From assembly GCA_963750165.1 (NCBI GenBank), contig CAVVPN010000011.1, positions 2,048,001 to 2,112,000 of the forward strand: 64,000 nt of DNA. The letters are read 5' to 3'. The notes beneath the pieces were generated by a model that worked only from the letters and a program-made list of their open reading frames with translations, searched no databases and was not told the origin of the DNA. The translations under genes were made by a program, and so were the position numbers. Of the stretch, positions 9,884 through 64,000 are shown in pieces; the first letter of the stretch is position 1, and the number at the start of each line of letters is the position of its first letter. The stretch comes from an uncultured Gemmataceae bacterium (lineage in GTDB: Bacteria > Planctomycetota > Planctomycetia > Gemmatales > Gemmataceae).

Positions 9884-10050
9884 GAACTCGCTCCTCGGCC
9901 GGGTATGCAAGTCGGTATCCACTGTCACTTGCAGTTACCGACTTCGCTGCGCGGCAGACCTGGAGCTTCCAGGGCCAGTTGCTGCGGGGACATGATACGC
10001 CGCGTTGCTTCCTGAGCCAGACGGCACGCACGAGGGGCTGACTGTTGGGG

Positions 10051-13974: not shown

Positions 13975-14111
13975 GATAACCTCGAACGTGCGGTGGTCTC
14001 CTGATTCGGGGCGTTCCTTGCCCCGGCGCCTCGTGCGCGGCTGGTTCGAGCGGATCGCGCCTGGGGGTGGGATGGCGGGCACAGCCTGACCAGCAGGGGC
14101 CTGCGCTGTCG

Positions 14112-14275
14112 CAGCAAGGGAGCCAAGGGAGCCAATGTTTTCACACGTCGAGATGCGGCGCCCTGGCCCTGTACGGCTGGCACGGCGCGACAACCACCGG
14201 CGGCGGTTGCCACAGCAAGGGGGCCAAGGGGGCCAAGGGGGCCAGCTTTTTCATACGTCGAGATTCGCGCCTGGC
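14112..14275. repeat. Imperfect ~55-60 bp intergenic direct repeat with 9-bp GCCAAGGG(G/A) subunits
   Basis: cagcaagggagccaagggagccaatgttttcacacgtcgagat (14112) versus cagcaagggggccaagggggccaagggggccagctttttcatacgtcgagat (14213). Confidence 0.6.
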
Positions 14276-15441: not shown

Positions 15442-15520
15442 AGGAGGCGCCGAACAACAACTTCGTAGGACGGCTCTCCAGAGCCGTCCTACTCTTGGAA
15501 GTTGTTGTTCGGCGCCTCCT
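15442..15520. repeat. Nested inverted repeat: perfect 23-bp outer arms enclosing a GTAG-initiated REP-like palindrome; may act as terminator or RNA stabiliser
   Basis: AGGAGGCGCCGAACAACAACTTC (15442-15464) pairs with GAAGTTGTTGTTCGGCGCCTCCT (15498-15520). Inner GTAGGACGGCTCT-CC-AGAGCCGTCCTAC spans 15465-15492. Confidence 0.85.
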
Positions 15521-16164
15521 TATGAAAACCACACCTGGCCGAACAGGTTTTTTCCTACGGAAGCCCGTCGTACTTCCTCGATCCCCGCAGCAGAAGAGTC
15601 CTTCCTGAGTGCGTTCACGTCTCGATCTTGTTGCTGCAGCTCCTGTTCGATGAGTTCACGCACTGCCGCAATCTCGGAGGGGTCAGGGCCGCTCTCCTCC
15701 TTGAGATCGTTCAGGAGGACGCCGTGTTCATCCAGCAATAGTTCAAGAAGGTCGAAGTTCCTGCCCGAGAGGAGATGTGCATAGCCAACGGCCCGCTTTT
15801 CAACTGCGCCAAGCAGATCCACGATTGCGGTTGCGATGGTATGAGCGACTGCGGACGATGGACCTCCAGTATCTTCTACTTCCGGCTCTCCCGCTGCCGA
15901 CGAAATGAGTAGCTGCCGGAAAGGCGTTAGCGACTCGGTAACAGACAGAGACGTGTCATTTAGCACGTGCTGCCAGGCGGCATCCAAATCGAGACGAAGT
16001 TTACCCTGCCAATCGACCATCCACGGCACACTCCGCACGGCTCGTTGAAAAACGGGCCATTGTCGTTCGGTGCAGGCCAAGGCAAAGGCAAAGGCGGCAT
16101 TGGCACCCATCCCAGCCAGCGCACGTTCAACATCTTTCAGGTGTTGAACAATTCTCTTGAACAT
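15520..16164 (-). CDS. Candidate cognate immunity protein (helical, DUF416/YjaG-like N-terminus)
   Basis: 214 aa. Starts 3 nt after the toxin stop, with a GGAGGAGG RBS inside the toxin 3' end. FAFALACTERQWPVFQR resembles DUF416-like proteins. Acidic, and visibly lower in GC than the giant gene body. Confidence 0.7.
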   Translation of the reverse strand: MFKRIVQHLKDVERALAGMGANAAFAFALACTERQWPVFQRAVRSVPWMVDWQGKLRLDLDAAWQHVLNDTSLSVTESLTPFRQLLISSAAGEPEVEDTGGPSSAVAHTIATAIVDLLGAVEKRAVGYAHLLSGRNFDLLELLLDEHGVLLNDLKEESGPDPSEIAAVRELIEQELQQQDRDVNALRKDSSAAGIEEVRRASVGKNLFGQVWFS

Positions 16165-16167
16165 GTC

Positions 16168-16600
16168 TCAGCCTCCTCCGATGGGCCTGGTAATTTGCCC
16201 GTGGACAGATTCTGTTCCCGTGATGTTGATGACTCCTGCTGCGTTCTGCCGAGCCTCGCATGCGGTGCAGGCGTAGTGGGTACACGCCTGCCGTGCCCCT
16301 TGTGCTTCACTTCCCAGGTATTGAATAGCACGAGCTTCGGCGTGGTTTCCCGCCAATCCAGCGGCATTGCCTCCTGTCGTCCCCCTGACGAACTCCACAC
16401 CCTCGCCGAAAATCTCGGTAGCCCTGGCACGGGCCAGAACGCCAGGAACTTGTCGGGCCTGGCTCACGACCACTCGACCCGTTGGAGTGACCGTGACGGC
16501 GATCGGAACACCGGTTACTCCGTTCGCCCCGAAAGCGGCGTTGTGGATGCTGTCGGTGGCGGCCTGGAGTTCTGCATTGGTCCACTGGAAGGGTGTTCGT
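16168..16600 (-). other. C-terminal deaminase-like toxin domain (HxE...CxxC)
   Basis: WTNAELQAATDSIHNAAFG...PIAVTVTPTGRVVVS...GNHAEARAIQYLG...THYACTACEARQNAAGV; His codon at 16344-16342, Cys codons at ~16269 and ~16260. Confidence 0.75.
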
Positions 16601-19600
16601 ACTGCTGGAGCAGCATTCCCCGCGGCAGCTCCCCCCTCGGCAGTCTGCAGCGCCCCCCGTTCGGCGGCGCCCGGCAGTTGCGCCCCTTCCCCGGCCGCCC
16701 GTTCGGCGGCGCCCGGCAGTTGCGCCCTTCTTGCGCCGCCGCCTGCTCGACAGCGGCTGGCACTTGCGCCCCTTCCTGCGCCGCCGCCCGCTCGACGGCG
16801 CCTGGCAGCTGCGCCCCTTCCTGCGCCACCGCCTGCTCACCGGCCCCGACCACTTGCGCCCCTTCCTGCGCCACCGCCCGCTCACCGGCCCCGACCACTT
16901 GCGTCCCTTCCTGCGCCACCGCCCGCTCCACCGCCGGCAGTTCGCTGCTCACCGCCGCCGCCACCGTCGGCCGGGCCACCGCGCTCGCTTCCGAGGTGAC
17001 GGCGGCCGTTTCACTGCTCACGGTCGCCACCTCCGCCGTGGCCGTGGCGGCCCTGGCGGAGGCTCGCGCGGACGCGATCCCGATGCCGGTCAGGCCGACC
17101 AGGTCGATCCCAACGTCCACTACCGTAGCGGCCGTGTCGCTGCCAGTCGCGGCTCTGGTGATATCGTAGGTCAGCGTATGCGTCTGCTCACCGGAGATCA
17201 ACTGGCGGAGGCCCGCCTGCGCGTCGTCGATGCCCTTGAGGGCAACCGCCCCGCCGAAGAAGATGCCCACGCCGGTTTCCGCCGTGACCGCGGCGAAGGT
17301 CACTCCGGCGAAGGTCTGCATCACCCCCCCGACGAATTGCATGGCGCCGAAGACACGCGTAAAGAAGGTGCCGAACGGGTTCCCCCCCTGGGGTTGATTC
17401 TGGAAGTTGTTAAAGTTGATCCCGCTGTGGACGACGAGACGGTAGGACTCGCCGGAGTCGGTGGAGTCGTTGTGAACCAGCACCGCCGCGCCGCTCTCCG
17501 GCAGCACGACGAAGTAAGTGTGGTGCGCCTCGACGTGCAGGTTGTAGACCGGCTCCACGTCGCCGTTGGCGAACAGGTCCGTCAGCACGGCCCAGCTGGC
17601 GTCCGGCGTCCTCAGTTCGTCGCCGATGCGCAGGTCGGCCGCCATGACCCAGCCGCGGCCGCGGACATAGAACGGGTGGCGGTAGGTTGCCCGCACCACG
17701 TCGGCGCCGACGTGCAGCGTCAGGAGCTGGGCCGGCGCGTTGTGGAACGCCCGCGCCACCCGACACGGCTCCGGCGCCGCCAGCGGGTCACCGTCCGGCG
17801 CCGCCAGCACCAGGTCGCCCGCCTGCACCTCCTCGATCCGCTTCGCGCCGCCGTCCGCCATCAGCACCAGTGTTCCGGCGGCGAAGCAGTACTGGTAGAC
17901 GAGTTGGTCGCCCATCCCCGCGAAGGCGTCCAGCGACGCCGCGCCAGCGAGAGACCACCCACTGCCCAGATCGCCCAGGCTCGCCGCCACCGAGTCGCGC
18001 GTCAGGGCGTTGGAAAGCGATCCGGACCCGGGTTGAGATTGCGCGGCGATCTGCGTGACCGTCGCCGACCACGGCGCCGCCACGCCGCCCCCCGTCGGGA
18101 TGGTTGGCCCGCTGCCCCAAACCAGGGGCGCGCCGACCGGCGCGAAGTCGAGGCTGCCCGTCGTGCCCGTCCCCTGGTTGCTCGTCTCGACGTAGTGCTC
18201 CAGCAGATCGTAGCGCGAGTTGCCCGAGGCGGTTTGGGTCAGGGCGCCGTCGAGGTAGTTGCCGCCTTGCGCCAGACTGAGCGAGGTGCTCCCCGTGGTT
18301 GCGACCGTGTTCCCGCCGCGCGTCTCGGAGCGGTTGTAGTTGCCGTTCACCGAAGTGGTCCGGGTGAAACCGCCCGTCTGGGTGTTGCTCGACTCCACGA
18401 CGGTCGATCCGTCGGTCCCGGTCACCGTCACCGAGTAGGCGCCGCCCGAGTCGGTCCCGGTCTGGGCGAGCGAATACACGTCGCTGCCGTTGGTGGTCGT
18501 TTGGTAGCTGCCGCTGATGGTGTCTTGCGACTCGGTGGACGTGTAGGTGTTCGTGCCGCTGCCCACCAGGTGGTAGGGGTTCAATCCCGCAGTCAGGTCC
18601 TGCGTGAACGAGTAAGTGTCCGTGCCGGTGGTGTTGACGCTGTTGGTGCCCGTGACGGTGTTGCCCGTGCTCGTCGCGTGGCTGACGTCGGTCGAGGTGC
18701 CCGCATAGGTGAACGGCCCAGACCCGCCGGTCCCGCTCTGGGTCACGGCGGTCGTCGTCGTCGTGTCCATCGTGTTCGACCCCGACCCCGTCACGCTGTT
18801 GCCGCTGACGCTCGACGAAGAATCGACCGTGGTGACGACGTGAACGGTGAACGAGGTCGTGAGGTCATTGCTCGCCGACGATTGGTCGTCGGTCACCGTC
18901 GAAGTGCCGGACGACGTACCGGTGTACGCGCCGGTCAGGTTGTTCCCGGAGTTCGATTGACTCTCCGAGTCGCTCGTCGTCTCCGTCAGAGTGAAGTTGC
19001 CCGTCGGGACGCCGGTGACGGCGCGCGTCGTCGTGCCGTCGTCGGTCGTCTGCACGGCGCTGGTGAAGTCCCCGGTGACGTTGTTGCCCGAGCCGGTGGA
19101 GGTGTCCGTGGTCGTCGTGGTCGAGTTCAGGGTGTAGGGGTTGCCGCGGTTGCCGGTCTCGCTGTCCGTGGTCGTCGTGCTGTCGCTCCCGGTGCTGGTG
19201 TAAGCGCCGGTGACCGTGTTCTCCGTTTGCTGCTGCGTCGAGTTGCTGGTGGTGGTGTCGGTGCTCGTGTCGCTGCCGTCGCTGTAGGTGGTGCTCTGCG
19301 TCACCACGTCGCTGTCGTTCGTCGTCTGCGAACTGGTCATCGCCCCGGTCAGGGTGTTGCCGGACGACTGCGAGTTCGTCGTCGCGGTGTCGGTCTCGGT
19401 GCTCGTGTAACTGCGAGTATCGATCGTCCCCGTTTGCGTGTGGGTCGTGGTCTGGGTCTGGGTGGCCGTCTGGCTGTCGGCGCCGGTGATGCTATTGCCC
19501 GACTCGGTCCCCGACGAGGTGGTGGTGACGGTGTTGGTGTCGGTCAGGTTCTCGCCGGTGTTCGTCTCCTGCCACGACGAGCTGAGGGTGTCGGTGCCGG

Positions 19601-22600
19601 ACGATGTGGTCGAGAACGCGCCCGTGACGCTGTTGCCCGACTCAGACGACTGGGAGTGCGACGTTTCCGTGTGATTGTCGCTGGAGGTTTGCGTCTGGTT
19701 CGTGGTCGTGCCGCTGACGGTCGCCGTCGTGTCCGATGTGGTCGTATCCGTGAGGGCGCCGCTGACAGAGTTGCCGCTCTGCTGGTCCGTCGAGGTCGTC
19801 GTCGCCGTCTGCGAATCGGTCTCCGTGGAGGTCTGGTTCGTGGTGGTCTGGTCCGTCGTCATCGACCCCGTCGTGGTCTGCGTCGTGCTGAAGTCGCGCG
19901 TGCGGTCGCTGCCACTTCCCTGGCTGGTTGTGGTCGCCGTCTGGGTCTGCGTCGTCACTACCGTCAGCGGACCGTTGGTCATGGTCTCGTTCAGAGACTC
20001 ATTGATCGTCGAGGTGTCGGTCGTCTGGTAGGCGCCTGTCTGGCTGTTGCCCGAAAGGGTGTCGCTCGACGTCGTGGTCGTTGTCCCCGTCAGCGTGCGC
20101 GACATCGTCTGGTTCGTCTCGTCCTCGGTGAACGAGGAGGTCGAGGTGCCCGTGTCCGACGAGCTGTGGACGCCGGTGATCGAATTTGCCGTCCCCATGG
20201 AGGTGCTGCTGCTCGTGTCGGTCCCGTCCGACGTCACCGTGTCCGTTTGGTTGGTGTCGGTCTGGTGACGGTGGGTCGTCCCGGTGTTGGAGTCCTGGGT
20301 CGTCGAATCGCCGGTGACGGAGTTGCCCGTGACGGTGCTGCTGTCGTGGGTGCTGTCGGTCGTCGTGATGACCGAGGTCAGGGGATTGTTGGTGTCCGTC
20401 TCGGAGTTGGTGTCCGTGCTGTCGGTCGCGCTGGTCGTGGTGTACGCGCCGGTGATCGAGTTGCCCGACGACGAGGTGGTGCCGCCGTCGCTCGACGAGG
20501 TGGTGATGGCCACGCTCAGCGTTTGGTCGCTGTCGGACTCGGTCCCGCTGGAGGAGTCCGCGAAGGTGTCCGATGACGAGAACGCGCCGGTGATGGCGTT
20601 GTCGGTGCTCTGGGTCATGTCGGTTTGAGTCCCGGACGAGCTGGCCGTCACAGTTATCGTCAGGTTCGTCTCGGTGCGCTGCGAGGTCGTGGCGGTCGTC
20701 GAGGTGGCGGCCGTCGTCGTCGTGCCGAGCAGATCGTTGCCCGAGCCGGACGACGAACCCGTGGTCGAGGAGGTGTCGTGCAGCGTCGCCGTCTGCGTCA
20801 GGTAGGTGAAGGTCTGGTCCTGCGTGGAGTTGGCATTGTTCGTCCCGCTGATGGTGAAACTGCCGGCGATGCGGTTGCCGGAACGGTTCGACGTGTCGCC
20901 AGTGGTCGAGGTGAGCGTGATCGTGCTGACCGGGCCGATCGCGTTGACCTCAGTGGTCGCCTGCGAAGTCGAGTCGGTCGCCGTGACCTGGTAGTCGCCG
21001 GTGACGCTGTTGCCCGTCTCGGTCGAGGACGTGTTCGACGACTCGGTGCCGGTGGTGGTGATGATGTTGACCTGGTTGGTGTCGGTCTGCGACAGGTTGT
21101 CGGAGCTGCTGCTCGTCACCGTGGTCGAGTAGGCGCCGCTGTTGGTGTTGCCCGACGAGTCGGTTTGCGACGTGCTCTGGCCGCCGGTGCGGTGCGCCGT
21201 GCTGGTCAGCGTCTGGTTGGTGAGCGTATCGTCGGTGCTGAAGGTGGACGTGGTCGTGGACGACGAGGTGAAGTCGCCGGTGACGTTGTTGCTGGTGCCG
21301 GTGGTCGTGGTCGTGCTGCTGGTGGTGCCGGCGTCCGTCCTGGTCTCCGTCTGGTTGGTTTGCGTGGCGGACGAGGTCGTGGTAGCGGTCTCGGTGCTCG
21401 CGGTGGTGCTGGCGCCGGTGACGCTGTCGCCCGAGTCGGTGGACCCGGCCGTGTAGTCGGTCGTGGCCTGTGATGTCAGGCTGCGGGTCTGGTCGGTGTC
21501 GGTCTCGTTGGTCTGGGAGTGCCCGCCGGTGGTGGTCGCGGTGGACGTCCAGGCGCCGGTGAGCGAATTCGAGGTGGCCTGGGTCGTGGTGCTGCCGGAG
21601 TCGGTCTGCGTGACGAGCGTGTCGAGCCCCTGGTTGGTCGAGTGGTCGGTGCTGGTCGAGGATGTCGCGGCAGTGACCGTGCGGTCGTCGTCGCCGGTAA
21701 CCGAGTTGCCGGTGGCGGTGCCGCTCGAAGTGGACCCGGACGAGGAGGTGATCGTGTCCGTCAGGGGGCCGTCGGTGGTCGTCCGCGTCAGGCTCTCGGC
21801 GGTCGTGCCCCCCAGCGTGTTGTTGTAGTCGCCGGTGACATCGTTGCCGGTGCTCGTCGTGTTGCTGGTCGTGGTGGTGGTGTCGGCGTAGACGGCGGTG
21901 AGCGCACCGTTGGTGTCGGTGCCGCTGACGGTCGTGGTCTGCGTCGTCGCGCTGGTGGTCGTGAAGTCGCCAGTCACCGAGTTGCCCTGCCGGCTGCCGC
22001 TGGTGCCCGTGGTCACCGTCTTTGCATCCTGAGTCTGGAGCGTCTGATCGGCAACCGTTTCCGCGCGCACGTCGGTCGAACTGCCCTGCGTCTGCTCGTT
22101 CGTGTCGCCGGTAATCGTGTTGTCGTTGAACGTGGTCGTCGTGGACGACGTGAGCTGGCTGATGGTCGCCGAGACATGCAGGTCGCTGATGTCGTGCGTC
22201 TGTGTGCCGCTGCCCGTCGTGGCCGTTGAGGAAGTGCCGGACGAGTCGCCCGTCAACGAGTTCCCGGCGGCATGGTTGTGAGTAGTCGTCGTCGAGTGCT
22301 CGGTGAGCACGCCGGTCGCGCCGGAGTTGGTCGTGGTGTCGGTGCTTGCGACGGTCGTCGTGGCGGAATCGTCATTGACAAAGTCGCCGGTGACCTGGTT
22401 GCCGCTGCCGCTGCTGGTGTCGGTGGTCGTCGCCGTTGTCGTCTGCGTGTCGGTGAGCGTCTGGTTGGTCGTGGTCACCGTGCTGCTGGTCTGGGTGTTC
22501 GACGTGCCGTCGCTGGTGAAGTTGCCCGCGATCTGGTTGCCCGAACTGCTGCTGTTGGAGTTGCTGGTGCTCGTGCCGGTCGTGGTGACCGTCTGCCCCT

Positions 22601-25600
22601 GGTTGTGCTGGGTATCGGTGCTCGTGGTGGTGCCGTTGGTCTGGTCGGTGTTGCTGAAGTCGCCGGTGACGCTGTTGCCCGACGCGGTGGTTGTGTCGGT
22701 GCTGGTCGTGCTGGCGGTCGAGGTGTCGGTGAGTGTCTGATTCACCGTCGTCTGGTTGCGGCTGACGGTGCTCGTCACCGTCCCGCCATTCTGGTAGTCG
22801 CCGGTGACGGAGTTGGACGTGCCGCTGCTGTTGCCGTCGGTGTGGCTGGTGATGGTGACCGTCTCGGTCAGGCCGTGGTTGGTGTCGGTCTCGTCGCGCG
22901 TCGAGTCCGACGTGGACTGGCTCTGCTGCTGCGTGTCGCCCGTGATCGAGTCGCCCTGGCTGGTCGTCGTGGACGTGCCACTATCGGTGACAGTGGCTGT
23001 GCTGGTCTGTGTCTGGTTGGTCGTGTCCACGGTCTTGGTGTCGCTGCTGGTGGTGTTCTGGGTCGCGTTGAACGAGCCGTCGATGGAGTTCCCGGTATTC
23101 GTGGCCGTGGTGGTGACGGTCGCGTCGGTCGTCGTCGTGGAGGTCAGCGTCTGGTCGGCGACTCCCTCCACGTCGTCGGTCGTCGTCGTGGATGTCTGCG
23201 TGGTGTCGAAAGCGCCGCTGTAGGTGTTGGAAGTGCTGTCCGTGTGACTGACGATATGGGACGTGACGTTGCTGTCGGTCGTCTGGGGGTCGTTGGAGCC
23301 GGAGCCTGTCTGCGTCGCGTCGCTCGTCGAGTCTTCCGTGCTGGTGAAGTCGCCGGTGACCGAGTTGCCGTTAGACTGGTCCTGCTTGGTGCCGGTCACG
23401 TCGAGGTGGCTGGTGAACGTCGAAGTCTGGTTGGTGTCGGTCTCGTCCTGCGTCGTCGTCGAATCGACCTGCGACGAGGTGGCGCTGGCGCCGCTGAACT
23501 GATTGCCGGACTGCATCCCGTCGGAGGTCGTCGCCGTGGCCTGGGTGTTCACCACGGTCGTCAGGGTGTTGTTCGTGGTGGTGTCGTCGCGCGTCGTCGT
23601 CGTCTGAGAGTTGAAGGTGCCGCTGAAATCACCGGTGACCGAGCTGCCGTCGTTCTCCGCGTGACGTGTGTTGTCCATCGTGACATCGACGTTCTCGGTA
23701 ACAGACTGGTTGGTGGTCGTCGCGGTCTGGTCGGAGTCCTGGGTGCTGTCGTCCGTGGTCGAGAACTCCCCGGTGACACTGTTGCCGGAGTCGGTCAAGG
23801 TGTCGTCGGTCGTCGTGGACACGTGGTTCTGGGTGCTCACGGTCAGGTTGGTGGTCGAGTCGTCCCGCGTCGTCTCGGTGTCGCTCGTCTGCGTGGCCGT
23901 GAAGTCCCCGGTGATCGAGTTGCCGCTGTTGGTCACGTCCTGGCTGGTCGTGGTGGTGATGGTGGCGGTCCCGGACTGGGTCTGGTTGCTCGATGTCTCG
24001 TCGCGCGTCGAGCCGGCGTCGGCGTGCTGGGTGGTGGTGAAAGCGCCCGTGATGGCGTTGCCCGTGGTGGTGGTCGTCGTGACGTTGTCGCCGGTGCTCT
24101 GCGTGGTCCCCGTCACGGTGAGCGGGCCGTTGGTGGTGGTGTCGGTGCCGTCGGACTGTGAGGTGTCTGTCGCGTCGGTGCTGAAGTCCCCGCTGATCGA
24201 GTTGCCGGTGGTGGTCGTATCGGTGTGGCCGGTGGTCGTCATCGAGCTGACGACTTCCTGAGTCTGGTTGGTCGCGTCTTGGTCGGTGGTGGTGGTGTAG
24301 TCGTTGGTCTCCGTGCGGGAGTAGCTGCCGTCGATGGTGTTGCCGTCGGCGTCAGCGGTCTTGTCGGCGGTGGTCTCGACAGTCGTGTCGGCCGAGGTTC
24401 CCTGGTTGGTGATGTCGTGCTCGGTGGTGGTGTCGTCGGACTCCGTTTGCGACTGGGAGAACTGGCCGCTCAGCGTGCTGCCGCCGCCGGTCCACTGGAT
24501 CTGGGTGGTGCCGCTGCCGGTCATGGTGTCGGTCTGCTGGCCGTTGGTCGTCGTGCCCTGCGACGACGAGGTGTTGGTGGTGATGCCGTCGTAACTGTAG
24601 TTGCCTCCGAGGGTGTTGCCGCTCTTCTCCCAGTCATCAACCTCGGTCGCGTCGGTGGTCGAGTTGGAGGTCTGCGTCTGGTTGGTGCCCGTCACCACGG
24701 TGTGCGTGGTGGTGGTCGTCAGCTGGATGATGTCGAACGTACCGTCCTTCTTGTTGCCGGTGTTTTGCACGTTGCCGGTCGTGCTGGCGTCGCCGACCTG
24801 CTCGGTGTGGCTGCCCTGGTTGTCCTGGGTCGCGTCGTCGTGGGAGGTCGAGTTGAGGCTCTCCTGGTAGTCGTAATTGCCGGCGTAGAGGTCGCCGCTC
24901 TGGGTGAGATCCTTGTCCGCGGACGATGTCACGGTGTCGGAGGTCGTCACCGTCTTGTTGGTCCCGTCGGTCTCGGTCGTTGCGTCGGTGTGCGAGGTGC
25001 CGTTCAGGGAGTAGCTGCCGCCCTGGGCGTTGCCGGTGTTGGTCTGGTCGTAGGTGGTGTGGATGGAGCTGGTCTGGGTGACATCGGACGACTGGTCGGT
25101 CTCGTGCCGCGTCTGTTCCACGTCGGTCGTCGCGTCGGTCATCAGGGTGAACTGACCGGTGAGGTCATTGCCCGTCTTGTCGGCATCGGTGGTGACGGTG
25201 GTGCTGCCCGTGACGTTCGCCGACATCGGCTGGTTGACCTCGTCCCGGTTCACGATGTCCGAGGTCGTCGTCGTGGTCATGCTCAGGGTGTAGGCGCCGG
25301 TGATGAGGTTGATGGTCGCCGCCGTGGTCTCCTGGTCGAGCGTCGTGTTCAGCTCCTGATCGTAGCTGAAGGTGCCGTTGGAGCCGGACTCGCTGACATC
25401 GGTCTGCTGGTTCAGCTGGCGGGTGCGCTGCACGATGCCGGTGGTGTAGTCGCCCGTCTCCTCGATGTTGTCGGTGCTGTCGCTCGTGCCACTGGACGTG
25501 TAGTCGCCGATCAGCGCCTGGTTGGTCAGCTGGGCGGCCAGCTGGCCGGAGTCGGCGCGGATGAGGCCGTCGATTTCCCCCTCCAGGCTGGCATCGACGG

Positions 25601-49600: not shown

Positions 49601-52600
49601 CAGCGCGTTGCCCGACAGGTCGGTGATGCCGGTCCCCAGCGTGACGTTGTAGACGCCTTCGACCGACTGGCTCGGGATGTTGACCCGGAAAGTGCGCGGG
49701 TCGAGCTGAGTGACCGTGAAGGTGGCTGGGTCGAGTGTGCCGCCGGGCCCGCTGATGGTCACCTGGGCGCCCGTGAAGGTGTTGAGCGCGATCGGCTTGC
49801 TGAAGCCGACCTGGAACGAGGAAATGTTCTGGTTGGTCGGGCCAGTCGGGCTGAAGCTGGCGACCGCTGGCGGGGTGGTGTCCCGGAGGGTGACGGCGGC
49901 GCTGGCGGCAATGGGCGTGCCCCCTGCTCCCAGGGTGACGGCCCCGTTGGCGTCCGTCTCGACAATCACATAGTAACTGCCGGTGGGGTGGTTGCCGTCG
50001 TAGGGGAGGGTGAAGTTCAGCGACACGTTGTCCTGGGCGCCCGGGGCCAGCAACGGCCGGTTGCCGCCGCCGTTGTAGGTCGCCACCAGCAGCGCGCTGC
50101 CGTCGAGCGTCGCATGGCTGGACACAAAAACGTAATCGGTCCAGTTGGCCGGGACCGCGGCCGTGCCGGTGTTGTGGACGGCGTAGCTGAGCGTGTAAGA
50201 CTGGCCGAAGACTCCCGGCGCCGTCTGCGGCGTGATCGTGTCCACGACAAAGACCGGCAGCGCGACAGTGAACGAGGCGTGGAAGACATCATTGACGGGG
50301 TCGCCGTTGACGCCGTCCTGGTTCTGGTCCATGCTGTTGCCGGCCAGGTCGTAGACGGTGGGGCCGATGGCCAGGGTGTAGGTGCCGTTGGTGTTTTGCG
50401 CAGCGAAGGGGATGCGGTAGGTGTTGCTGCTGACCAGGAACGGCGTGCCGACGCTCACCGCGTGGCCGAGCGGGTCGGTCAGGGTGATGGTGCTGGGCGT
50501 GAAGGTGGCGGCGTTGATCGGTTTGCTGAACGTGACATCCACCGACGCGACCGTGTTGTTGAGCGTGCCGCTCGGCGTCTCGACGGTGATGTGGGCGCCG
50601 TGTTTGTCGATGGTCCATGATGCCTGGTAGGCCGTCGGCAGCGCGTTGCCCGACAGGTCGGTGATGCCGGTCCCCAGCGTGACGTTGTAGACGCCTTCGA
50701 CCGACTGGCTCGGGAAGGTCACACGGAACGTGCGGGCGTCGAGCTGCGTCACCTGGAACGTGGACGAGTCGAGCGTGCCGTTCGGCCCGGAGATGGTGAC
50801 CTGGCTCGGAGTGAATGAGATGCCCTGGATTGGCTTGCTGAAGCCGACCTGGAACGAGGCAATGTTCTGGTTGGTCGGACCCGTCGGGCTGAAGCTGGCC
50901 ACGGCCGGCGGCGTCGTATCCTGGATGGTCACGGCGCTGCTGGCCGCGACCCGGACGCCGTTGTCGGCCCGCGGCACGGCCGAGTAGGCGTCCGCCTCGA
51001 CGATCAGGTAATACGTGCCGGTCACCTGGTTGCCGTTGTAGGGCAACGTGAAATTGAGCGCGACGTTCTCCTGGCCGCCGGGCGCGAGCAGCGGCCGGTT
51101 ACCGCCGCCGTTGTAGGTCGCCACCAGCACCGCGCTGCTGTTGAGCGTCGCCTGGGTGGACAGGTAAATGAAGTCGGTGGTGTTGACGGGCACCGCGGCG
51201 TTGCCGGTGTTCTTGACGATGTAGCTGAGCGCATAGGGGCTGCCGAAGGTCCCCGGCGCTGCCTGCGGCGTGACCGAGCTTACGTTGAAGACCGCGGTGG
51301 GGGGCAGCGACAACGGCAGCACGGTGCTGACGCCGGTGTTGTTGTTCTCGTTGATCTCCGGTTGCTGGTTGTTGATGTCGGTCTGGACGATGAGGTAGTA
51401 GTTGCCCGGCACGACGCTGGTGTTGAACGGCAGCGTAACCTGCTCGGTCTGCGTGTAACTGGCGTTGGCCGCCAGCGGGCTGAAGGTGGCAGCGCTGAAG
51501 GTGCCCAGCAACACGCTGTTGCTGTTCAGCGTCGTGCTGTTCGACAAGTACACGCCGTCGCTCCACTGCTCGCGCCGGGTCGCTGCCGAGGTTCTTCACC
51601 GTCCAGCTGACGTTGATGGTGTCGCCGAAGTTGGCGCTGGACGGCCCGCTCACATTGGTGACGGTCAGGTCGGGGGACTGGAGGTTGATGGCGGCGGTAA
51701 AGGCGGCCGTCATCGGGTTGCCGGCAATGTCGGTGATGTTGGGGCCGACGAGCAGGGTGTAGGTGCCGGGGGCGGTCTGGCCGGTGAAGTGGATCACGAA
51801 GTTGCGGCCCGACCCGGTCACGCTGGTCACCTGGCTGGTCAGGACCACGCCGCCGGGCCCGATGAAGTTGGTGACATCGGCGGTGGTGAACGTCGTGGGA
51901 TCGATGTTTTCATTGAAGGTGATGCCGAGCTGGTTGAACGGCACCGAGGCCTGCAGGGCCGGCGTCTGCGCGACGACGACCGGGCCGGTCTGATCGATGA
52001 CGAAGCTGGACGAGTAGGCGGCGCTCGGCTGCCCCTGGAGGTCGGTGAAGGCGCCGGCGGCGAAGGAGTAGGCGTAGGTCGCCTCGACGTTTGGCACCGA
52101 CAGGCCGAAGACGACGGTGTGGCCGTCGGTCATCGTCACGCCCGTGACGGTGACGCCACTGCCGATGGTCAGATCGGCCGGCGACAGCAGGTCGGCGCGG
52201 ATCGCCGAGGAGAGCGTGACCGTGAGGGTCGTGGGGGGCGTCCTGGTCGGCTGGCCGTCGTAGGGGGTCGTGGCCACGACACTGGGGGCAGGCGTGTTGG
52301 TGGGGAGGGCGCCGGCGATGTTGAGCGTGTAGGCGCCGCCGGCGGTGTCGCGCACCGTGATATTGTCGAGGTCCTCGTCGGCAGTCTGGCCGCCGGTGCG
52401 GGCGCTGAAGGCAGCCCGGCCTTCGTATGGCGCCATCCCCGCCACGAAGTAGTTGTCGATCAGCGTGGCGGCCGGGCCGCCGTTGGGTGTGAGGGTGACG
52501 GTGACGTAGGAGCCGCCGACGCCGGCGGTGATGCGGATCTCGGCGTGGTCGAACTGGCCGTTGGCCAGGTCAAAGGCGGGGAAGAAGTTGCCCAGGATCT

Positions 52601-55600
52601 GGTTGTTGAAGTGCAGCGACACTTCGTTGTTGCTGTTGCCGTCGATGCTCCCGTTGTTGTAGATGTCGAAGCCGACGCCCAGCGAGCCGGGCAAACTCGG
52701 CTCCTCGCCGAAGCCCGGGACGTTCGCGCTGCCCGTGGTGCCGTAGTCGGCAGTGTTCAGCCACGCGAAGCCGAGGCCGTCGGCCTGGCCGCTGCTGGGC
52801 GTCATGCGGAAGTCGAAATCGACCACCGTGGTGGGCGCGGGGCCGACATGGGTGCGGTCGAAGGCGATGGTGTTCAGGCTGTAATACTGCGCGGGCGTGA
52901 GCCGCAGGAAATTGCCGGTCGGGCCGCCCGAGAGGATGGAACTGGCCGTGCCGCCGTTGTTCGCCAGGGTGTAGGGCGTGCCGCCGCCGTCGAAGTTCTG
53001 CGCGGTGTCGGCGGGGCCGACGGCCGTGCTCACGTCGGTGACCACAACCTTGTAGACGCCGGCGTCGCCGACCGGGATAGTGTAGCTCAGGAGGGCGTTG
53101 TAGCCATCGGCAGCGCCGCCGGTGTTGCTGGCGACGAGGTGGCCCGATGGGTCGTACAGGTCCAGGTGCGGCTGGACCTGGTTGACCGGCTCGCCGGGGC
53201 CGCTGCCGGGCGTCGTGGTGGTCAGCACCAATGCCTGGCCCGCACCGCCCTGCACGAGATACTGGTTGGTGTCGCCGCCTTCGCTGCTGAGGGCGCCGAG
53301 CACCTGGTTGTTGAGGCTGATGAGCTGCGGGCCGGCCGGCGCGATACTCGGCTCCAGGGCATAGTCGGCGCCGCGCGTCACCACGACCGTGTAGTTCGCG
53401 GCGGCGGCGCCCGTGATGCGAATCAGGTACGACTGGCCGGCGCCCACGAAGTCGTCAATGCGCTGGTTCCCGAGCGCATCGGTGGTGCCGAGGGCCAGGA
53501 CGTTGCCGTTGGCGTCCAGTAGCGCCAGTTGCGGCGTGACACCGGTCGTTTGCGACCGCAGCACCACACTGGCGGACTGGCCGCTGGCCAGGGTGAACGC
53601 ATACTCGTCGGTGTCGGTCGCACTCGCCAGGCTGCCCACCACCGCCAGCCGGTCGGCCCCGCCCTGCAGCGAGATCGCCGAGCCGTCGATCAACTGGGCG
53701 GTGGCCGGCGTATCATCGGACGGACCGCCGAAGCTCTCGGCTTCAACCGAGGCGTTGAGCGTCGCCGCGACGGTGTAGCCCCCGGACCCCGCCAGGCTGC
53801 TCACCTGAATCGTGTAGGTGCCCGCAGTGGCAACCTGAGCCGATTGCAAGAAAACGGTCTGTCCCGCCGCCGCACTCGCCGTACCCACGATGGAACCGTC
53901 GGGGGCGAGCACTTCGATCTGGCCGCTGAGGGACGGGTCGCTCCCGGCCAGGCGGATGGTGAGCGCCTGACCGGGGTCGAGGTTGAGCGTGTAGCTATCG
54001 ACATTGCCGGCGGCATGGAACCGCCCGGTGGCGGCGCCGGTGAAGACCTCCGAGCCGACCGGGGCGACAGGTTGCAGAGGCGTCGGGAACGGCGCAGTGA
54101 GGTCATCGACGGCGAAATCGACGAGGTAGTTGCCGCCGGTGAGCAGCAGCCCGCGCCGGTCGCGGAAGGCGGTCGCCGACGTCAACAGGGTCAGCGTGTA
54201 ATCGCTCTCGGCCAGGTTGCTGTAGGTGATCGTGGCGACGGTGTTGGTCGGGTCGAAGGTCAGTGAGTCGGGCAGGATGGTCTGGTTGGTGACATCGTTG
54301 GTCAACGGGGCGGCGGCGACGCCGAGACCGGTGGTCGCCATCTGCTTGCTGAAGGTCACGGTGTAGACGAGACTGCTCGTATGCACCTCGTCCCCCTCGG
54401 CGAGCGAACTGGAGACGACCTGTGGCGGCGTGAGGTCGGCATCGAAGGTCGCGGCGAACGCCTGAAGCGGCTGGCCCGACCAACTGGTGAGCACTCCCGC
54501 CCCGATGGCGGCGTGGTACAGGGCGTTGCCGTGGTTGGTGCCGGTGAGGTCGAACGTGAGCGTTTGCGGATCGACGACGGTGACTCCGGCAGCGGCCACA
54601 CCGTCGATGGTCAGGTCCGAGGCCGCCACGGTGCTCAGGAGCACCGGTTGCGACAGATGGATGGTGTAGGTGCTGGGGTAGACGCCAAGGAGAGCGTCGT
54701 CAGACGGTGTGACGGCGGTGGCGGTGAACGGCGCCTCCTGTCCGGTGTAGCCGGTCACCGTCAGGACGTATTCGCCGGGCGTGTCGTCGGCGATGACGCG
54801 CACGGTGTACGGGCCGCTCATCAGGGCGGTGTACACGAGGGAGGAGTTGCGGCCGTCGGCAGCGCTGTTGTCGTCCTGGGCGACCAGGGCGCCGGTCGGG
54901 TCGTACAGCTCGATGCGCGGGTCGAGCTGGTTGATCGGCCCCAGGGGCGTCTGGGTGTTGATGGTCAGCGTGTCGCCGGCGTTGGCCAGGACGCTGTAAT
55001 TGTTGGGCCCACCGCCGGCAGCCAGGGCGGTGTAATCGATGATGTTGTCCAGCAGGTTGTTGGCCTGGGGCTGCGGCGAGTGGAAGTTGGTCGTGGTCAT
55101 GCCGCCGAACATCACCAGGCCGGCGCCCCACTTCTCGTCGGCCAGGACGGTCTGGCCGACCTGATTCGTCAGCAGTGCCGTCAGGTTCGAGCCGCTGATC
55201 CAGGCGTGACTGAAGGAGTTGCCGGTGAACGTGGTGGTGATCGGCGTGAACGGCCCCTGGAAAATCGCCTGCGTCGGGTCAACCGCGGTCACGGTGGACC
55301 CGTAACTGGGGTAGTTGAGGGTGACATCGCCGAAGCCGAAGCTCATGCCACTGCCCTGATTGGGGGCGGAGTCGAGCAACAGGGAGTGGCCGGCGGCGAC
55401 CCAGGACTGCATCAGTGGCAGGTTGGCCTGGAGGAACGTCTGCAAGGCGTTGGCGTCGGCATCGCTGCCGTCGAGATAGACGAAGTCGTAACTGCTGGAG
55501 AACAGGACCGACGGATCCACCGTCTGGAAGCTCGAGCTGCTCCCAGTTGCTGGTCCCGAAGACGGCGTTCATCGCCGTCTCGTTGCTGCTGGAGCCCCAC

Positions 55601-58600
55601 GGATCGCCGGCACTGGAGGTGACATAGGCGGCGTGAACCCGGCTGACGTTGCCCCCGGCGCCGACGCCGCCCGTGTAGCCCAGCGCCACGCCTGTGCGGG
55701 TGATGTCTTGGGCCGTGCTCAACTCGCTGTTGGGCTGCTGGTCGAAGGCGGCGGCGCGGGTGACAATCAGGCTGTACGACGCGCCAGGGTCGTTGCTCAC
55801 GCGCGCGTAGTAGACGCCCGACATCTGCGGCACGAAGTCCGATACCGCCGCGGTCACGTTGCTGTTGTCGGGGGCGCCGTTGGCGAGGAGGTTGCCGGCA
55901 GAGTCGAACAACGACAGTTGCAGGCCAGCGCCGCCGGTCAGAGCCACGGTAGCCGCCTGCCCGGCGGCGAGCGTGAACTGGTAGTAAGTGTCGGTGGCCT
56001 GGGCTGCCGGCACACCGAGCAGCTGAATCTGCGAGACGGCGTAATTGTTGTCGCCGCCTGTCGCCAGGAAGCGCACTGCCGTCGTCGTCACGGGGGTGAA
56101 GGTGTGCCACTGCTGGCCGTCGCTGTAGGGGTAGTCGGGCCGGGAGATGAGTTCGTCATAAGGGATCTGGCTGCTCTCGGACGGCACGTCCCAGAGATCC
56201 TGCCACGTACCGTCCGCGGCGAGGTACTGGAGCTGATACGTGTCGGGGGAGTTGGCCTGGACGTTGGCCCCGCTGAGGACGTAGCTGCCACCCAGGTCGA
56301 TCTCCAGGGTCGGACTGGTGCCGTTCCACCAGACGCCGTCCTGCCAGTAGGCGCCGCGGTAGTACGGGAAGCCGTTGGTGATCGTCGTCAGGTCGCCGTT
56401 GAAGGCGCCGCTGTTGCCCACGTCGATGACGGTCGCGCCGAGGGCGACGTTGGTCGGGGCGGCAAAGGCACCGAGGACGGCCAGACGGTCGGCCGCGCCG
56501 GCCAGCGCGACGGACGAGTCGTCGAGGTTCTGGGCTGTGGCGAGGCTGCTGTCGGCCGCGCCGGGCACCAGGCCGGCTTCCTCGACGGCCGCGTTGAGCG
56601 TGAGGGCAACCTGGTAGCGGCCGGTGCCCGCCAGGCTGATGACGTCGATGGTGTACGTGCCGGTGGTGGCGGCCCCCAGCGTTTCCAGGACGACCGGTTG
56701 GCCGGCCGCCGCCGCGCTGGCGCTGCCGAGCAGGGAGCCTTCAGGGGAGACCAGCGCGAGGGTCGCCTGTTCCGACGGGTCGAGCGGGGTGAAGACGGCG
56801 GTGATGGTTTCTCCCGCATCCACGCTTAGCGTGTACGAATCAGTGTCGTCCACGTTGTTCAGCAGTCCGGGCGCCACCGTGTTGTAGATGAGCGAGCCGG
56901 CCGGCAGATTCGATTGCAGCGGCGTCGGGAAGGGTGTCGTGGTGGCGTCGGTGCTGAAATCGACGACGTAGTCGTTGGGGTAGCCGACGCCCGAGCCGTC
57001 GAGCGGATTCTCGGCCAGGTCGCGCCAGGCGGTGGTGGAACTGGGCAGGTCAAGTTCGTAGGTGCTCTCCGGCAGGTTGGCATAGGTGACGGTGGCCGAG
57101 TTGGTGGCGGGGTCGTAGACGAAGGAACTCGGCGTGTAACTGGTCCCACTGTAGGTGTCGGTGAGCAGCACGTCCTGGGGCCCCAGCCCGGTCGGGTCCA
57201 TCGCCTCGCTGAAGACAACGTGATAGGTCAGCGGCCCGGCGGGTACGACGTCGCCGTTCTGGATCGAGCTGCTGGCGACCGTCGGTAGGACCGTGTCGAT
57301 AATGAACGTCGAGGAGAACGCCGTCACCGGCTGCCCCGAAAGGCTGGTCAGCGCCCCGGCGGGGATGGTGACCGTGTAGGTGCCGTCGCTCGTGTCGAGG
57401 GCGCTGACATCGAACGACAGAGTGTCGGGGGCGACCTGGGTCACCGCCGCGGCGGGCACGCCGTTGACCAGCAGGTCGGAGGCGTCGATGCTGGTCTGCA
57501 GCAGCGGTCGCGAGAACTGGACCTGATACGTGGTCGGCACGATATTGAGGTCCGCGCCGGCGGCGGGGGTGGTGTTGCTGACCACGAAGGGGGCCGGCTG
57601 TCCGGTCGCGCCGCTGACCACGAGCGTGTAATCGCCGCCGACGCTGCCGGCAGCGCGGACGACGGCGCGGTACGTGCCGCCGGCGCCGTCCGGGACGGTG
57701 TAGCTCAACAGGGCGTTGCGGCCGTCGGGGGCGCTGTTGTCGTCGCTGGCGACCAGGGTGCCGTCAGGGGCGTACAGGTCCACGGCGGGGTCAAGGGCGT
57801 TCCCCGGCAAGCCGGGGGAGCTACCGGGCGTCGTGGTGCTCAGGACCAGGTTGTCGCCCGCGTTGGCGGTGAAGGTGTAGTCGTCCTGAAGGTCGTGGGC
57901 GCCGGCGGCCCAGGCCACGGCCTGCTGGAGCAGCTGGTCGGCGGGCCCCGAGCGCAGGTCGGTGGTGGTGTAGTTGGAACTGGCGGCGTAATCCGGCCCG
58001 AGGTAAACGCCGCGGCCGAAGCCCTCCGGGCCGACGACCACGGAAGGCACGCCGGCCGTGGTTCCCAGGACCGTCGCCCCTGGGACCACGGCCGGGGTGT
58101 GCTCGTCCAGCTCGATGTAGTCCTCGCTCACCGTGAACGTGGCGAGGCCAGCCGTGACCGGGTGCGTGGCGTCGGTGATCGTCACCTGGCCGTTGTACGT
58201 GGAGCCGCTGCCGCCGTTCGTGAGGTTGACGGGCAGCACGGCCTGAAGGTCGGCGAGCGTGGTGGTCGAGGCATCGGCAGCGCCCTGGAGGCCCCAGCCG
58301 GTGTCCACGACGCCGCCCCCCGCCGCAACCCACTGATGCAGCGCGGACGCGAAGCTGGCGTATTCGTCGCCGTTGTAGTAGCCGTTGTTGCCGATCACCA
58401 CAACGTCATAGGCGCCCAGTTCGGCCAGGGTGTTGACCTGCGCCGGCGTGACCTCGGTCGCCTGGAAGTTGCCGGAGGCGTTGAGCTGAGCGACGATGGC
58501 CTGATAGCCAGCGTCGTTGCCCGACGTGTTGGTGTCGGTATTCACCACGGCGACCCGCAACGGGCCGGCGTTGACCCCGCGCCCCAGCGAGCCCACGGCC

Positions 58601-61600
58601 TGGTGCGTGAAACTGATGTCCTGGGCGGTGGTGGCGTCCTCGTTCGGCTCGACGTTGAAGTCGGCCCCGCGTGTCACCACCAGCGAGTAGGGGGTGATCG
58701 CCGCGGCACTGACGCGGACGTAATAGTCGCCCGTCACGGGAGCATTCAGGTCGGCGACATAGCCGGCGACGTTGGTCTGCCCCTGTCCCCCCGTTGCCAG
58801 CACATTCCCGGCGGCATCGAGCACCTCAAGCGTGAGCGGGGTGCCAGCGCCGGGCGACGTGGGCGTGACCGCGAAGCTGGCGTACTGGCCCGCCGTCAGC
58901 GTGACGTGGTAATAGTCCACCGGGTCGCTGGGGCCGCCAAGGTTCGGGTAGAAGCTGAGGCCGCTGAGCGCTGATTCGCCGGTGGAACCGACCAGGGTGC
59001 CCTGACCGGTGGTCGGGTCAATCGTGATGAGTGAGCCGTACAAGGGGTAGGAGTTGTTGCCGCCCAGGCCGCCGTAGAGGGTGCCGTCGGGGCCGAACTC
59101 CACGGACGCCACGTCGTCGAAGCCGGTCGGGCCGATCACGGTCGCTTGACCGGTAGCGACGTTGATGGTCACGAGCTGGCTGCCGTCGGAGAGGTAGCCC
59201 GAGGTGATGCCGAAAAGCGTGTTGGTGCCGGGCTGGAAGCTGAGGCCGCCGATGTTGCCGCTCAGACCGGTCTGGCCGATGGTGGTGAAGGCCCCTGTGG
59301 CCGTGTTGATGGTGCCGAAGACACTGGAGCCCGAGCCGCCCTGACCCCCCGAGCGCACTCCATACAGCGTCCCGGCAGCGTTGAATGCCAGTCCGTTGAT
59401 GGTGTTGCCGCTGGCTGAACCGATGACGGTCGCCGCTCCTGTCCGCGGGTCGATGCTCAACAGCGTGGTGCCGGATTCGCCGAAGAGGGTCCCGGTGGGG
59501 CTGATCTTGATGCGGAGTTGCGCGTAGCCGGTGGCGCCGACAGGTGTGGCCTGGCCGGTGTGCGGGTCGATGGTGACCAGCAGTCCGTTGGGGCCGGAAT
59601 TCGGGTAAGGGATCGAGCCGAACAACTGGCCGATCAGATCGCCGTTGAGCGTGCCGACGGTGCCAAGGACGTTCAGCTGGTCGCCGCCGCCCGGCAGGGC
59701 CACGCCGCCGCCGTCCAGGTTCTGCGCCGTGGCGATGCTATCGTCGTCGCCGCCGACGAGGCGTTCCGTCTCCACAGCGGCATTGACAATGACGCGGAGT
59801 GTGTAACGGCCGGTCCCCTGCAAGGCGGCGGCGCTAACGGTGTAGGTGCCACTGGTGGTCACCGCGGCCGTCTCGATCACCGCCGGGGCTCCCGCGACCA
59901 TCCCCTGGGCGGTGGCCACGACCGCGCCCGACGGGTCGGTCAAGGTGACGGCGCCTTGCACGGCACCATCAATGGGGGTGAAGACCACGCTGACCGTCTG
60001 TCCGGCGTTCAGGGGCAGGGTGTAGGAGTGGGTGTCGGGGTCGGCGCGGAAGGCGCTGAGCTGTGTTCCTTCGTAGATGAGCCCGCCGGCAGGCGGGTCG
60101 AGCGCCAGGGGCGTGGGGAAGGGGGCGCTCGTCGTGTCGGCGACAAAATCCACCACGAAGTCGTGCCCGGCCGGGCTGGCCAGCGTGCTGTAGAGCGGAT
60201 TGCCGACGGCGTCCTGGAAGGCGTTGGCGCCGGCGCGCAGGGTGAGCGTGTAGTTGCTGTCCACCAGGCCCTGGAACCCGACCGTGATGCTGTCGGTGTT
60301 GGGGTCGTAAGCGAAGCTGTTGACCGGGACCGTTTGCCCTGACAGGGTGTTGACCAGCGTGACATCCTGGGCGCCGAGGCCGGCCGTGCCGAGGGGCTCG
60401 CTGAAGGTGGCGGTGTAGGTCAGGTTGCCGGACGGCACGACGTCGCTCTCGTTGATCGAACTGGCCGTCACCGTCGGGCCCGTGGTGTCCAGTGTGAACG
60501 TCTCGTCGTAAGCGCTGCTGGCGTCTCCCTGCAGGTCGGTGACGGCGCCCGCCGGCAGGTGAACGGCGTAGGAGCCGTCGCCGCTGTTCAGGTTGGACAC
60601 GTCGAACTGCACGGTGTTGGCGTCGATGACGGTGAAGCCGGTGGCGGGCGCGCCGTTGAGGGTGAGCGCCCCCGGGCTGAGCGACGAGAACAGCAGCGGC
60701 TGCGCGAACGTCAACTGGACCGCGCCGGGGAAGACGGCGAACGTGGCGCCGTCGGTGATGCTACTGGCGGTCACGTTGACCGCGTGCAGCGTGCGGCCGG
60801 CCGTGGCACCGTCGATCTCAAGCGTGTAGTCGCCGACGCCGGTGACGACGGCGACCCGGGCGGTGTAGGCGCCGCCGGCGCCGGTGGGGATTGTGTAGGT
60901 GACCCGGGCATTGCGGCCATCGGGCGCGCCCTCGAAGTTACTGGCGACCAGGTTGCCCGACGAGTCGTACAGTTCCACGATCGGGGCGAGGGTGTTTTCC
61001 GGCTCACCGGGGCCGGCCGTCGGCGTGGTGGTGGTGAGCGTCAGGGTGTCGCCGGCCCTGGCGTTGAAGGTGTGAAAGTCCTGGGTGTCGTTGAGGCCGA
61101 GGATGTTTGGCGTTTGCAAGGTCGCATTGAAGGTGTAGGTGCCCGTGCGGTTGGAGTAGCCGCCGGCCACGATGTAGTAGTCGCCGGCATAGCCGCTGCC
61201 GCTGCCGCCGAAGGTGTAAACGAGGTGCGAGTAGAGCCCGTAGTTGCCGCCGCCATCGTCGTTGTAGGCGAGCAGTTGCCCGGTGTTGTCGTACAGCCAC
61301 TCATAGCTATCGCCGATCGGGCTGCCGGTCTGGCCGGCGAGGTCGTCGAGGGTGAGTGTGTCGCCGGGCGAGGCGTAGATCTTGTAGAAGTCGCGGTCGT
61401 AGGCAGGCGAGACGTTCCCCTGGACCGAGGCGAAGTAGGTGTTGGTGCCCGTCTGGGTGAAGGTGCCCGACAGGTCGTTGGCCTCGGCGATGCTGTCGTT
61501 CGGCTCGGTCTCGCTGGAGATGGGGGGGACCGAGGAAGTGCCGCGGAAACTGCCCAGCGTGACGGGGGTGACGCTGACGTCGTCCGCGGTGGCCCGGGTG

Positions 61601-62502: not shown

Positions 62503-62903
62503 GTGTCGATCTCCTATCAGGCCCCCAGGCTGGCGATGCCGGGGCGTCCTCTGATGGGGACTCCAAGTTGGCGGAGCGCAAAAGTTGAAAGGGAGCCCGA
62601 GTCTGACGGGCTGCGAGTCATGGCGAATCTGAGCGCGCCCGATCCCGATAGGCCCTTGAGAACTCGAACCAGGACGCCGTTGTCGCGCACCTTTTCATGC
62701 GAGAACGAAGATGCGGTGGGGACAAGCTCAAAAAGCCTCAAACAAGGTTACAGAGGCATCCCGCGGCCGGCAACGAAAATCTGACGCAAGAATTCGGACG
62801 CGCAGAACATTCATTTCCTTTTCACATTCCACGAAAAAACCACGAATCGGCGGGGCTTTATTGGTGGAAATCGTTGAAATCGTTGTTTCGGGGGATAACA
62901 TGA

Positions 62904-64000
<1,097 letters not shown>

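Follow-up and report, generated by a model that had tools for sequence, protein, structure and literature searches.

A giant Gemmataceae gene probably encodes a polymorphic toxin with a beta-hairpin carrier and a deaminase-fold tip

We studied a 64,000-nt stretch of DNA (the window; G000:C11:2048001-2112000) from an uncultured Gemmataceae bacterium, whose genome assembly (G000) comprises 9.6 Mb in 12 contigs and is 93% complete. From an ATG at position 62502 to a stop at 16168 on the minus strand, 15,445 codons are spread over seven same-strand frames (Table 1), and the separately translated pieces total 15,433 residues (about 1.58 MDa). High third-position GC (0.89-0.99 in the coding frame) switches frame at five of the junctions; the sixth switch is less clean. 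A sequence-only reading of the window had described a run of about 46 kb and 15,400 codons, and both the codon count and the third-position GC, which follows the frames, bear this out. It had also placed a ribosome binding site (RBS) and a leader at the start. The RBS stands, while the leader stays below the cut-off of the LEPR-XLL model (12.4 vs. 17 bits). Leaders of the LE.R type open 11/16 giant gene chains (15 kb or more) of the host genome, and the leader is a probable export signal. Size and fragmentation are present as claimed, but are less special than proposed: the host genome contains an even longer giant, also broken, that spans about 80 kb (G000:C4:647458-727418, minus strand) and in which six overlapping long frames probably form a single gene of some 26,000 codons.

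Table 1. Features of the locus and its surroundings in window coordinates.
Feature	Position	Strand	Basis or remark
Six long frames	62502-55279, 55568-51099, 51595-44183, 44529-40228, 40924-29906, 30506-16515	-	frame calls
Seventh (tip) frame	end at 16168	-	frame calls
Junctions J1-J6	near 55530, 51577, 44437, 40551, 30017, 16735	-	
RBS AGGAG	62511..62515	-	sequence, 8 nt before ATG 62502
Basic leader ending LEERVLL	62371..62502	-	variant of LE.R leader
Piece 1	55534..62502	-	repeated PPC and Big_5 modules, ThuA-like and galactose-binding-like domains
Piece 2	51579..55529	-	PPC, Big_5, galactose-binding domain (GBD_IRG7_N above cut-off); ends within CARDB domain
Piece 3	44441..51574	-	CARDB array (10 stretches) and Big_5
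Piece 4	40555..44433	-	conserved core and propeller-like region, common to three paralogues
Piece 5	30020..40549	-	He_PIG, Big_9, Big_13 arrays; Dockerin_1 motifs near 36016, 35917, 34015
Thr/Ser-rich repeat (within piece 6)	18176..25826	-	about 55 units of 46 residues, GNSxTGxF turn
Carrier end motif RYxLL...G.LDFxPxGxP	18119..18215	-	conserved among carriers
PT-HINT autopeptidase	17469..17888	-	Cys at start, His-Asn at end
Gly/Ala-rich helices after HINT	17070..17340	-	moderately hydrophobic, best 19-residue hydropathy 1.5-1.7
Short tandem-repeat linker, contains J6	16640..16960	-	
Deaminase-fold tip (predicted)	16168..16596	-	H85-A-E87, C110-x-x-C113; motif span 16258-16344
DUF416-like partner, predicted immunity protein	15520..16164	-	214 residues; ATG 16164, 3 nt past tip stop
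PEP-CTERM-like small secreted protein	14351..15112	-	after partner; tie to toxin system putative
Peroxidase (catalase-peroxidase by eye)	62940-64000	+	flanking gene
WD40 protein	6282-8807	+	flanking gene
TIR_2 protein	9071-9928	-	flanking gene
GH2 glycoside hydrolase	12481-14193	-	flanking gene

For the flanking peroxidase, WD40, TIR_2 and GH2 genes, no tie to the toxin was seen. Among 251 other genomes, a single weak homologue of the PEP-CTERM-like neighbour was found, located on a different contig from the orthologous giant. In the host genome, PEP-CTERM-type small genes lie directly 3' of four giant genes (window 14351-15112; L165, L166, L167), out of 21 such tails found by pattern. One of the small proteins is cohesin-like by eye; Pfam finds no cohesin (0/5), and anchoring of the giant through its neighbour by a dockerin-cohesin pair is at most a conjecture. 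The giant's domains at 55000-55620 and 35200-35700 of the window resemble whole small PEP-CTERM proteins (L093, 52%; L166 and L169, by eye), and sequence likeness of this kind suggests module exchange between giants and small PEP-CTERM genes.

With regard to the six frame breaks, we estimated the break rate of the assembly based on 580 frames that were taken from 400 kb of a related control genome in one contig (G003) and matched against the host genome. For 11 of the 100 well-matched frames (36,807 aligned residues), the best match is frame-switched, where best matches may be paralogues and one switch may be a gene boundary. The affected families include DnaK, RibBA, HemB, MnmE, NuoI and PutA; the reverse test in the control genome gave 0/94. 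If 9 to 11 of these switches are true, a stretch of 46.3 kb should hold 3.8-4.6 breaks, and the six observed are unremarkable (P 0.18-0.32). In the 15 other giant chains, at least 27 breaks were counted over 429 kb; at this minimum rate, the gene should have 2.9 breaks, and six or more would arise with a probability of 0.08.

We also probed each junction with an X at the break and sought homologues that cross it in one frame. Such homologues are found for five of the six junctions. J1 is crossed by L093 (52%), a stand-alone PEP-CTERM protein of the same domain, and by L094 (34%), while J2 lies inside a CARDB repeat and is crossed by sister CARDB repeats. At J3 and J4, the frame continues in three paralogues and in the orthologous giant of genome G049 (75% and 66%), at J5 in the orthologues of G048 (47%) and G049 (36%). 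J6 is located in a G run within a repeated linker unit, the length of which differs from its sister units, and no start codon for the tip frame was found within 150 nt. Here, it is the repeat context only that suggests continuity of HINT and tip. An unbroken full-length homologue was not found, G048 and G049 being broken as well. Homopolymer errors were rejected as the cause of all six breaks, since G runs are present at J4 and J6 only.

These data bear on two alternative accounts. It is unlikely, in our view, that some of the breaks are real, such that a former toxin gene has decayed to a pseudogene or has had its tip silenced via repeat slippage at J6. The six breaks are slightly over expectation, J6 falls within a homopolymer run of a tandem repeat, and G048 is broken near J4, too. 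On the other hand, breaks are about as frequent in conserved housekeeping families of the host assembly, no in-frame stop is found inside any piece over 46 kb, and both tip and partner are intact (the partner being 64% identical to a homologue). Very improbable is an operon of separate proteins, or programmed frameshifts that yield products of varied length. A GTG start codon with an RBS-like word does occur near 2/6 junctions, but both are inside a domain, and the junctions cut domains that are continuous in homologues. The G048 orthologue switches frame within the same ten codons as J4 with equal net shift, yet with different base changes; it also contains many errors, with 5 more breaks over 3,973 aligned residues. 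In G049, J3, J4 and J5 are unbroken, and the nine breaks mapped within pieces 3-6 of G048 and G049 sit at other places.

The breaks are thus most likely long-read indels of this assembly; any single break may nevertheless be real. That the locus is one gene, as the sequence-only reading had proposed by joining the open reading frames, we consider very likely given the one-frame crossings and the frame-switch rate. Its statement that the junctions fall mid-domain holds wherever homologues stay continuous, and applies to the two RBS-like starts as well.

The orthologues in G049 and G048 are collinear with pieces 3-6, with best chunk matches of mostly 40-77% outside the repeat (52-73% identity for piece 3 in G049). 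For pieces 1-2, no match was found in either genome, i.e., the N-terminus is variable. Three paralogues in the host genome share the middle of the scaffold, lack PT-HINT and have dockerin-like or other tails. More than 10,000 residues of the giant are adhesin-type domains common to non-toxin paralogues. The Ig stalk is optional, since it is missing in shorter members of the carrier family. The Ig part of the giant is probably a generic planctomycete surface scaffold that was fused with a shorter toxin carrier. At its end, the G049 giant shows a HINT, a linker, a second HINT and Endonuclea_NS_2, followed by a YezG-like gene, while G048 ends in a HINT and another tip without Pfam match. Homologous stalks with different tips after the HINT, the check that had been proposed from the sequence alone, are therefore found.

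For piece 6, Pfam yields only PT-HINT and its overlap AXH, NCBIfam yields nothing, and the Thr/Ser-rich repeat is matched by neither. This repeat comprises 2,550 residues with a period of 46 (autocorrelation 0.254 vs. at most 0.165 in 50 shuffles), of which 13% are large hydrophobic, 290 acidic and 47 basic. The earlier reading had put the emphasis on the lectin/Ig stalk, for which binding of target cells is a conjecture at most, given that it also occurs in paralogues without HINT and is missing in shorter relatives. The conserved carrier is this Thr/Ser hairpin repeat, which the earlier reading had not singled out. Each unit is predicted to be a hairpin of two strands of about 19 residues, i.e., the array would have about 110 strands. 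An AlphaFold2 model of the last 420 of the 2,550 residues (23 sequences) is an unbroken meander of such strands (pLDDT 87, pTM 0.82). The model superposes on the outer-membrane barrels CymA, FhuA and MtrB (best Z 16.9-18.4, rmsd 5-8 A, 4-9% identity), which shows geometry only, i.e., a predicted curved antiparallel sheet. We rejected a membrane barrel: in contrast to outer-membrane barrels, the sheet is polar on both faces, no strand position outside the turn exceeds 34% large hydrophobic residues, and the strands show no sign of a hydrophobic membrane belt. The strands may wind into a hollow tube that would be extensible, because the repeat length varies from about 1,500 to more than 3,500 residues among relatives. 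A profile of the carrier against solved sequences gave nothing convincing (best E 0.035), and a single-sequence carrier search of longer proteins found nothing.

A profile of the repeat end matches 26/252 genomes of Gemmataceae, including the host, with up to 11 matches per genome that are often clustered (G051, G053, G075, G139). With regard to possible spare tip cassettes, the host has one carrier match only, and 0/400 other genomes sampled from the phylum are matched. Five more carrier proteins were obtained from a protein collection. The members in G139, G167 and G263 are 2,300-4,500 residues long and consist of leader, few or no Ig-type domains, repeat and tip. A period of 46/92 is present in 7/8 relatives' frames measured, the exception being G139. 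Judged by these sequences, the repeat marks a toxin-carrier family.

The scan of frames downstream of the carriers covered 85/98, the remainder being already scanned, short or transposase-like. Tips on other carriers include Tox-GHH and GH-E above cut-off and WHH below cut-off, the latter beside a DUF2262 gene. PT-TG and several HINTs are also found downstream, and P0086 ends in HINT and RES. Two HINTs in series precede the tip in some carriers (L074:16609-18770; P0087), and the P0087 tip is another HAE...CxxC. We further compared 45 carrier ends (46 distinct, one poor alignment dropped; one row assigned by eye). Of these, 33/45 finish in [FY]xD, 2 of them with a HINT within 3 kb, and 12/45 do not, of which 8 have a HINT, in a count where five rows have less than 1.5 kb downstream and kin are not independent. 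The copy in the window lacks the terminal Asp found in most HINT-free copies. As a lead only, this hints at the terminal Asp being a self-cleavage site that HINT replaces. Four copies have neither terminal Asp nor HINT (L141, L142, L143; genome G053) and are followed by TPR or LRR genes.

RHS toxins combine a beta shell with self-cleavage at DPxG. The carrier resembles RHS/YD toxins in its long beta-hairpin repeat and in a closing motif, mostly Asp(-Pro)-ended, just before the variable tip; it differs in the 46-residue period, the strand length of about 19 residues and its very variable length. No RHS_repeat match is found in piece 6, and one short RHS-like stretch below threshold lies 20 kb upstream in piece 5. 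DPxG is absent from the carrier end, i.e., there is no Asp in this copy and the [FY]xD ends are not DPxG. RHS or teneurin shells are not among the 50 best fold matches listed. Tentatively, and as a possible more than a probable reading, the hairpin array could be an independently evolved counterpart of the RHS shell, that is, a hollow, extensible single-chain tube that would house or conduct the toxin, with a self-cutting Asp(-Pro) cap that is replaced by HINT here.

Two further HINT loci were observed in the host genome. On contig C6 (G000:C6:8400-38500, minus strand; L176, L178), a second polymorphic toxin locus has a leader-bearing Thr/Ser-rich carrier and eight HINT cassettes with different tips. 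It was rejected as a member of the same family, having neither the 46-residue period nor a profile match, and is treated as a separate system. At G000:C11:709740-720995 (minus strand; L177), a frame of 3,751 codons has an LE.R leader and contains PT-HINT as well as repeats that look RHS-like by eye; it is broken just past the HINT.

The C-terminus agrees with the HINT, HAE...CxxC and small following frame that had been noted from the sequence: PT-HINT scores 52.5 bits vs. a Pfam cut-off of 27.7. The Gly/Ala-rich helices behind it give a weak DUF4225 match below cut-off, and these hydrophobic helices possibly form a membrane-crossing module. For the 142-residue tip, 81 relatives were found at E 0.001 or better, 74/81 with [HD]xE...CxxC at most 60 residues from the C-terminus. 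E87, C110 and C113 are invariant in 36 tip sequences. DAE replaces HAE in 10/81 relatives (L096, L097, L098). Among the longer tip relatives scanned (n=27), 11 have RHS matches, one has haemagglutinin repeats and two have PT-HINT.

The tip model has a pLDDT of 94 and matches many deaminases at Z 6-7.7, while no match reached Z 8 or a Foldseek E of 0.001. Deaminases dominate both fold searches; the top VIA row, which is tied, is a non-deaminase entry. Look-alikes of the tip in the Atlas reach only 0.83-0.87, and the tip profile aligns to dCMP deaminases at E 0.12-0.33. Of the models for named toxin-deaminase clades (MafB19, YwqJ, SCP1.201, Toxin-deaminase), none passes its cut-off; weak clade matches are seen for dCMP_cyt_deam_1 (12/36 members) and MafB19-deam (2/36). 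Based on predicted fold and motif, the tip appears to be a member of the Zn-dependent deaminase superfamily, and the HINT plus deaminase tip proposed earlier is in this sense supported as a fold. The clade matches point to an unnamed deaminase clade without a Pfam toxin family.

With regard to the partner, ten metagenome loci with the tip were available, of which six have a readable next gene, two are at contig edges and two are broken. A partner homologue (25-64% identity) follows the tip in 6/6 readable loci, and 4/6 of these homologues pass the cut-off of DUF416 (PF04222). The window's own partner has no DUF416 match in the Pfam scan, and reaches 0.95 in the Atlas to clusters with 17-28% of members carrying DUF416. 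The model of the tip-partner complex scores 0.90, compared to 0.01 for the best control, where the mark applied is reached by 116/157 solved pairs and 2/215 mismatched pairs. Complex runs agree in at least 90% of contacts with a partner pLDDT of at least 89, and the modelled interface includes H85 and C110 of the tip. That is, the model supports binding of partner and tip and predicts the partner to sit on the active site. The partner is likely an inhibitor that shields the producer, in support of the coupled immunity gene of the sequence-only reading.

HINT polymorphic toxins are described as an export region, a repeat stalk, HINT, a variable toxin and an adjacent immunity gene, with tandem cassettes (Zhang et al. 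2012, PMC3482391). Going by the gene order, the locus layout fits the definition in the available part of that paper: the giant shares the N-terminal export region (putative here), stalk, HINT, C-terminal toxin and adjacent partner. There, RHS, filamentous haemagglutinin, ALF and tail fibre are named as stalk types, and lengths peak at up to about 3,400 residues; in the giant, the stalk is a Thr/Ser hairpin repeat of 46 residues that follows an Ig scaffold of 10,000 residues. Toxin deaminases have HxE and CxxC on a deaminase fold and are tips of secreted carriers; the helical immunity proteins Imm5 and Imm6 are described for DYW and YwqJ (Iyer et al. 2011, PMC3239186). The giant's tip shares HxE and CxxC with these (MafB19, YwqJ, SCP1.201/DddA, BURPS668_1122, DYW), but fits no clade model, reaches a Z of only 5.2 for DddA and has a DUF416-like partner. 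Since Ig and lectin domains are already noted on deaminase toxins, planctomycete members included (PMC3239186), a deaminase on an adhesin stalk is no novelty in principle. Big and dockerin domains have been described in giant proteins of planctomycetes (PMC11573180), and for giants of Omnitrophota, hollow antiparallel beta tubes about 1,500 residues long have been predicted (bioRxiv 10.1101/2023.11.21.568195). Both share with our gene a length above 10,000 residues and Big, cadherin-like and dockerin domains. Compared by description only, the Omnitrophota tubes differ in their exterior helices and are described, in the available part of the source, without HINT, toxin tips or immunity genes. 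The available part of PMC13483458 does not mention planctomycetes. In literature outside subscription papers and supplements, we found no published description of the repeat or of DUF416 as a deaminase inhibitor. Sequence and predicted structure lead us to propose the hairpin carrier as a new polymorphic-toxin stalk type.

No export gene was seen within the window, as had been stated earlier for T6SS, CdiB and T1SS. The pieces scanned have no Pfam or NCBIfam match to a TPS domain or haemagglutinin repeats, and a CdiB/ShlB transporter search of the host genome found none, but the control genomes were silent too. T6SS sheath genes (C3:940k) and six secretins are located elsewhere in the host genome. 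We rejected T6SS cargo on account of the N-terminal leader and since HINT is reported never to occur with T6SS (Zhang et al. 2012, PMC3482391). In G049, efflux-like outer-membrane and periplasmic adaptor genes (by eye) lie 2 kb past the orthologous toxin locus (G049:C5:61562-65492; L075); a pair of this type was not seen in the window.

Overall, we consider it probable that the locus is a single-gene polymorphic toxin, in which an Ig/CARDB scaffold and a hairpin stalk carry a deaminase-fold tip released by HINT, with the next gene encoding its inhibitor. Domain order, continuity across five junctions, exchanged tips, conserved catalytic residues and tip-partner pairing can be read directly from the sequences compared. 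In the mechanism that we propose, the leader would direct the chain outward via leader-dependent export, not T6SS, and the Ig scaffold would hold it off the cell surface, while the hairpin array, predicted as a sheet, may extend or sheathe the tail. HINT would cut at its final Asn and free about 430 residues, i.e., the hydrophobic helices, the linker and the predicted deaminase. The freed piece could then enter a neighbour via the hydrophobic helices and deaminate DNA or RNA, and the partner, placed on the active site by the model, would block the toxin in kin.

Alternatively, the giant could mainly be an adhesin or matrix filament, with a tip that acts on grazers, phage or signalling, or that is incidental cargo. 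The large adhesin-type share of the chain is in line with this, as are the tails of other carriers, most of which are without Pfam match and several of which are followed by TPR, LRR or WD40 genes. We nevertheless deem it improbable: even on unrelated carriers, the tip still has its cognate inhibitor next to it, which implies a risk to bacterial kin, and sister carriers hold classical nuclease tips and immunity genes.

Under the polymorphic-toxin reading, the new parts are a hairpin carrier, an unnamed deaminase clade and a DUF416-like inhibitor, all of them predicted from sequence and models. The short list of polymorphic-toxin stalk types would thereby gain one member, and the partner pairing suggests a function for DUF416-like proteins. 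The carrier end motif provides a handle to collect many unmatched toxin tips and their partners in Gemmataceae, genes of a kind that residual long-read indels hide from annotation. As a protein architecture, a single chain folded into one soluble and polar sheet with about 110 long strands would be unusual, too. If the array is indeed an RHS counterpart, Gemmataceae would have a new toxin-delivery chassis of their own, attached here to a surface protein of 1.6 MDa. This chassis would come with dozens of tips of unknown kind, and DUF416 would be the family of inhibitors that act on an unnamed deaminase clade. Some giant planctomycete genes would thus gain a concrete job, namely interbacterial attack.
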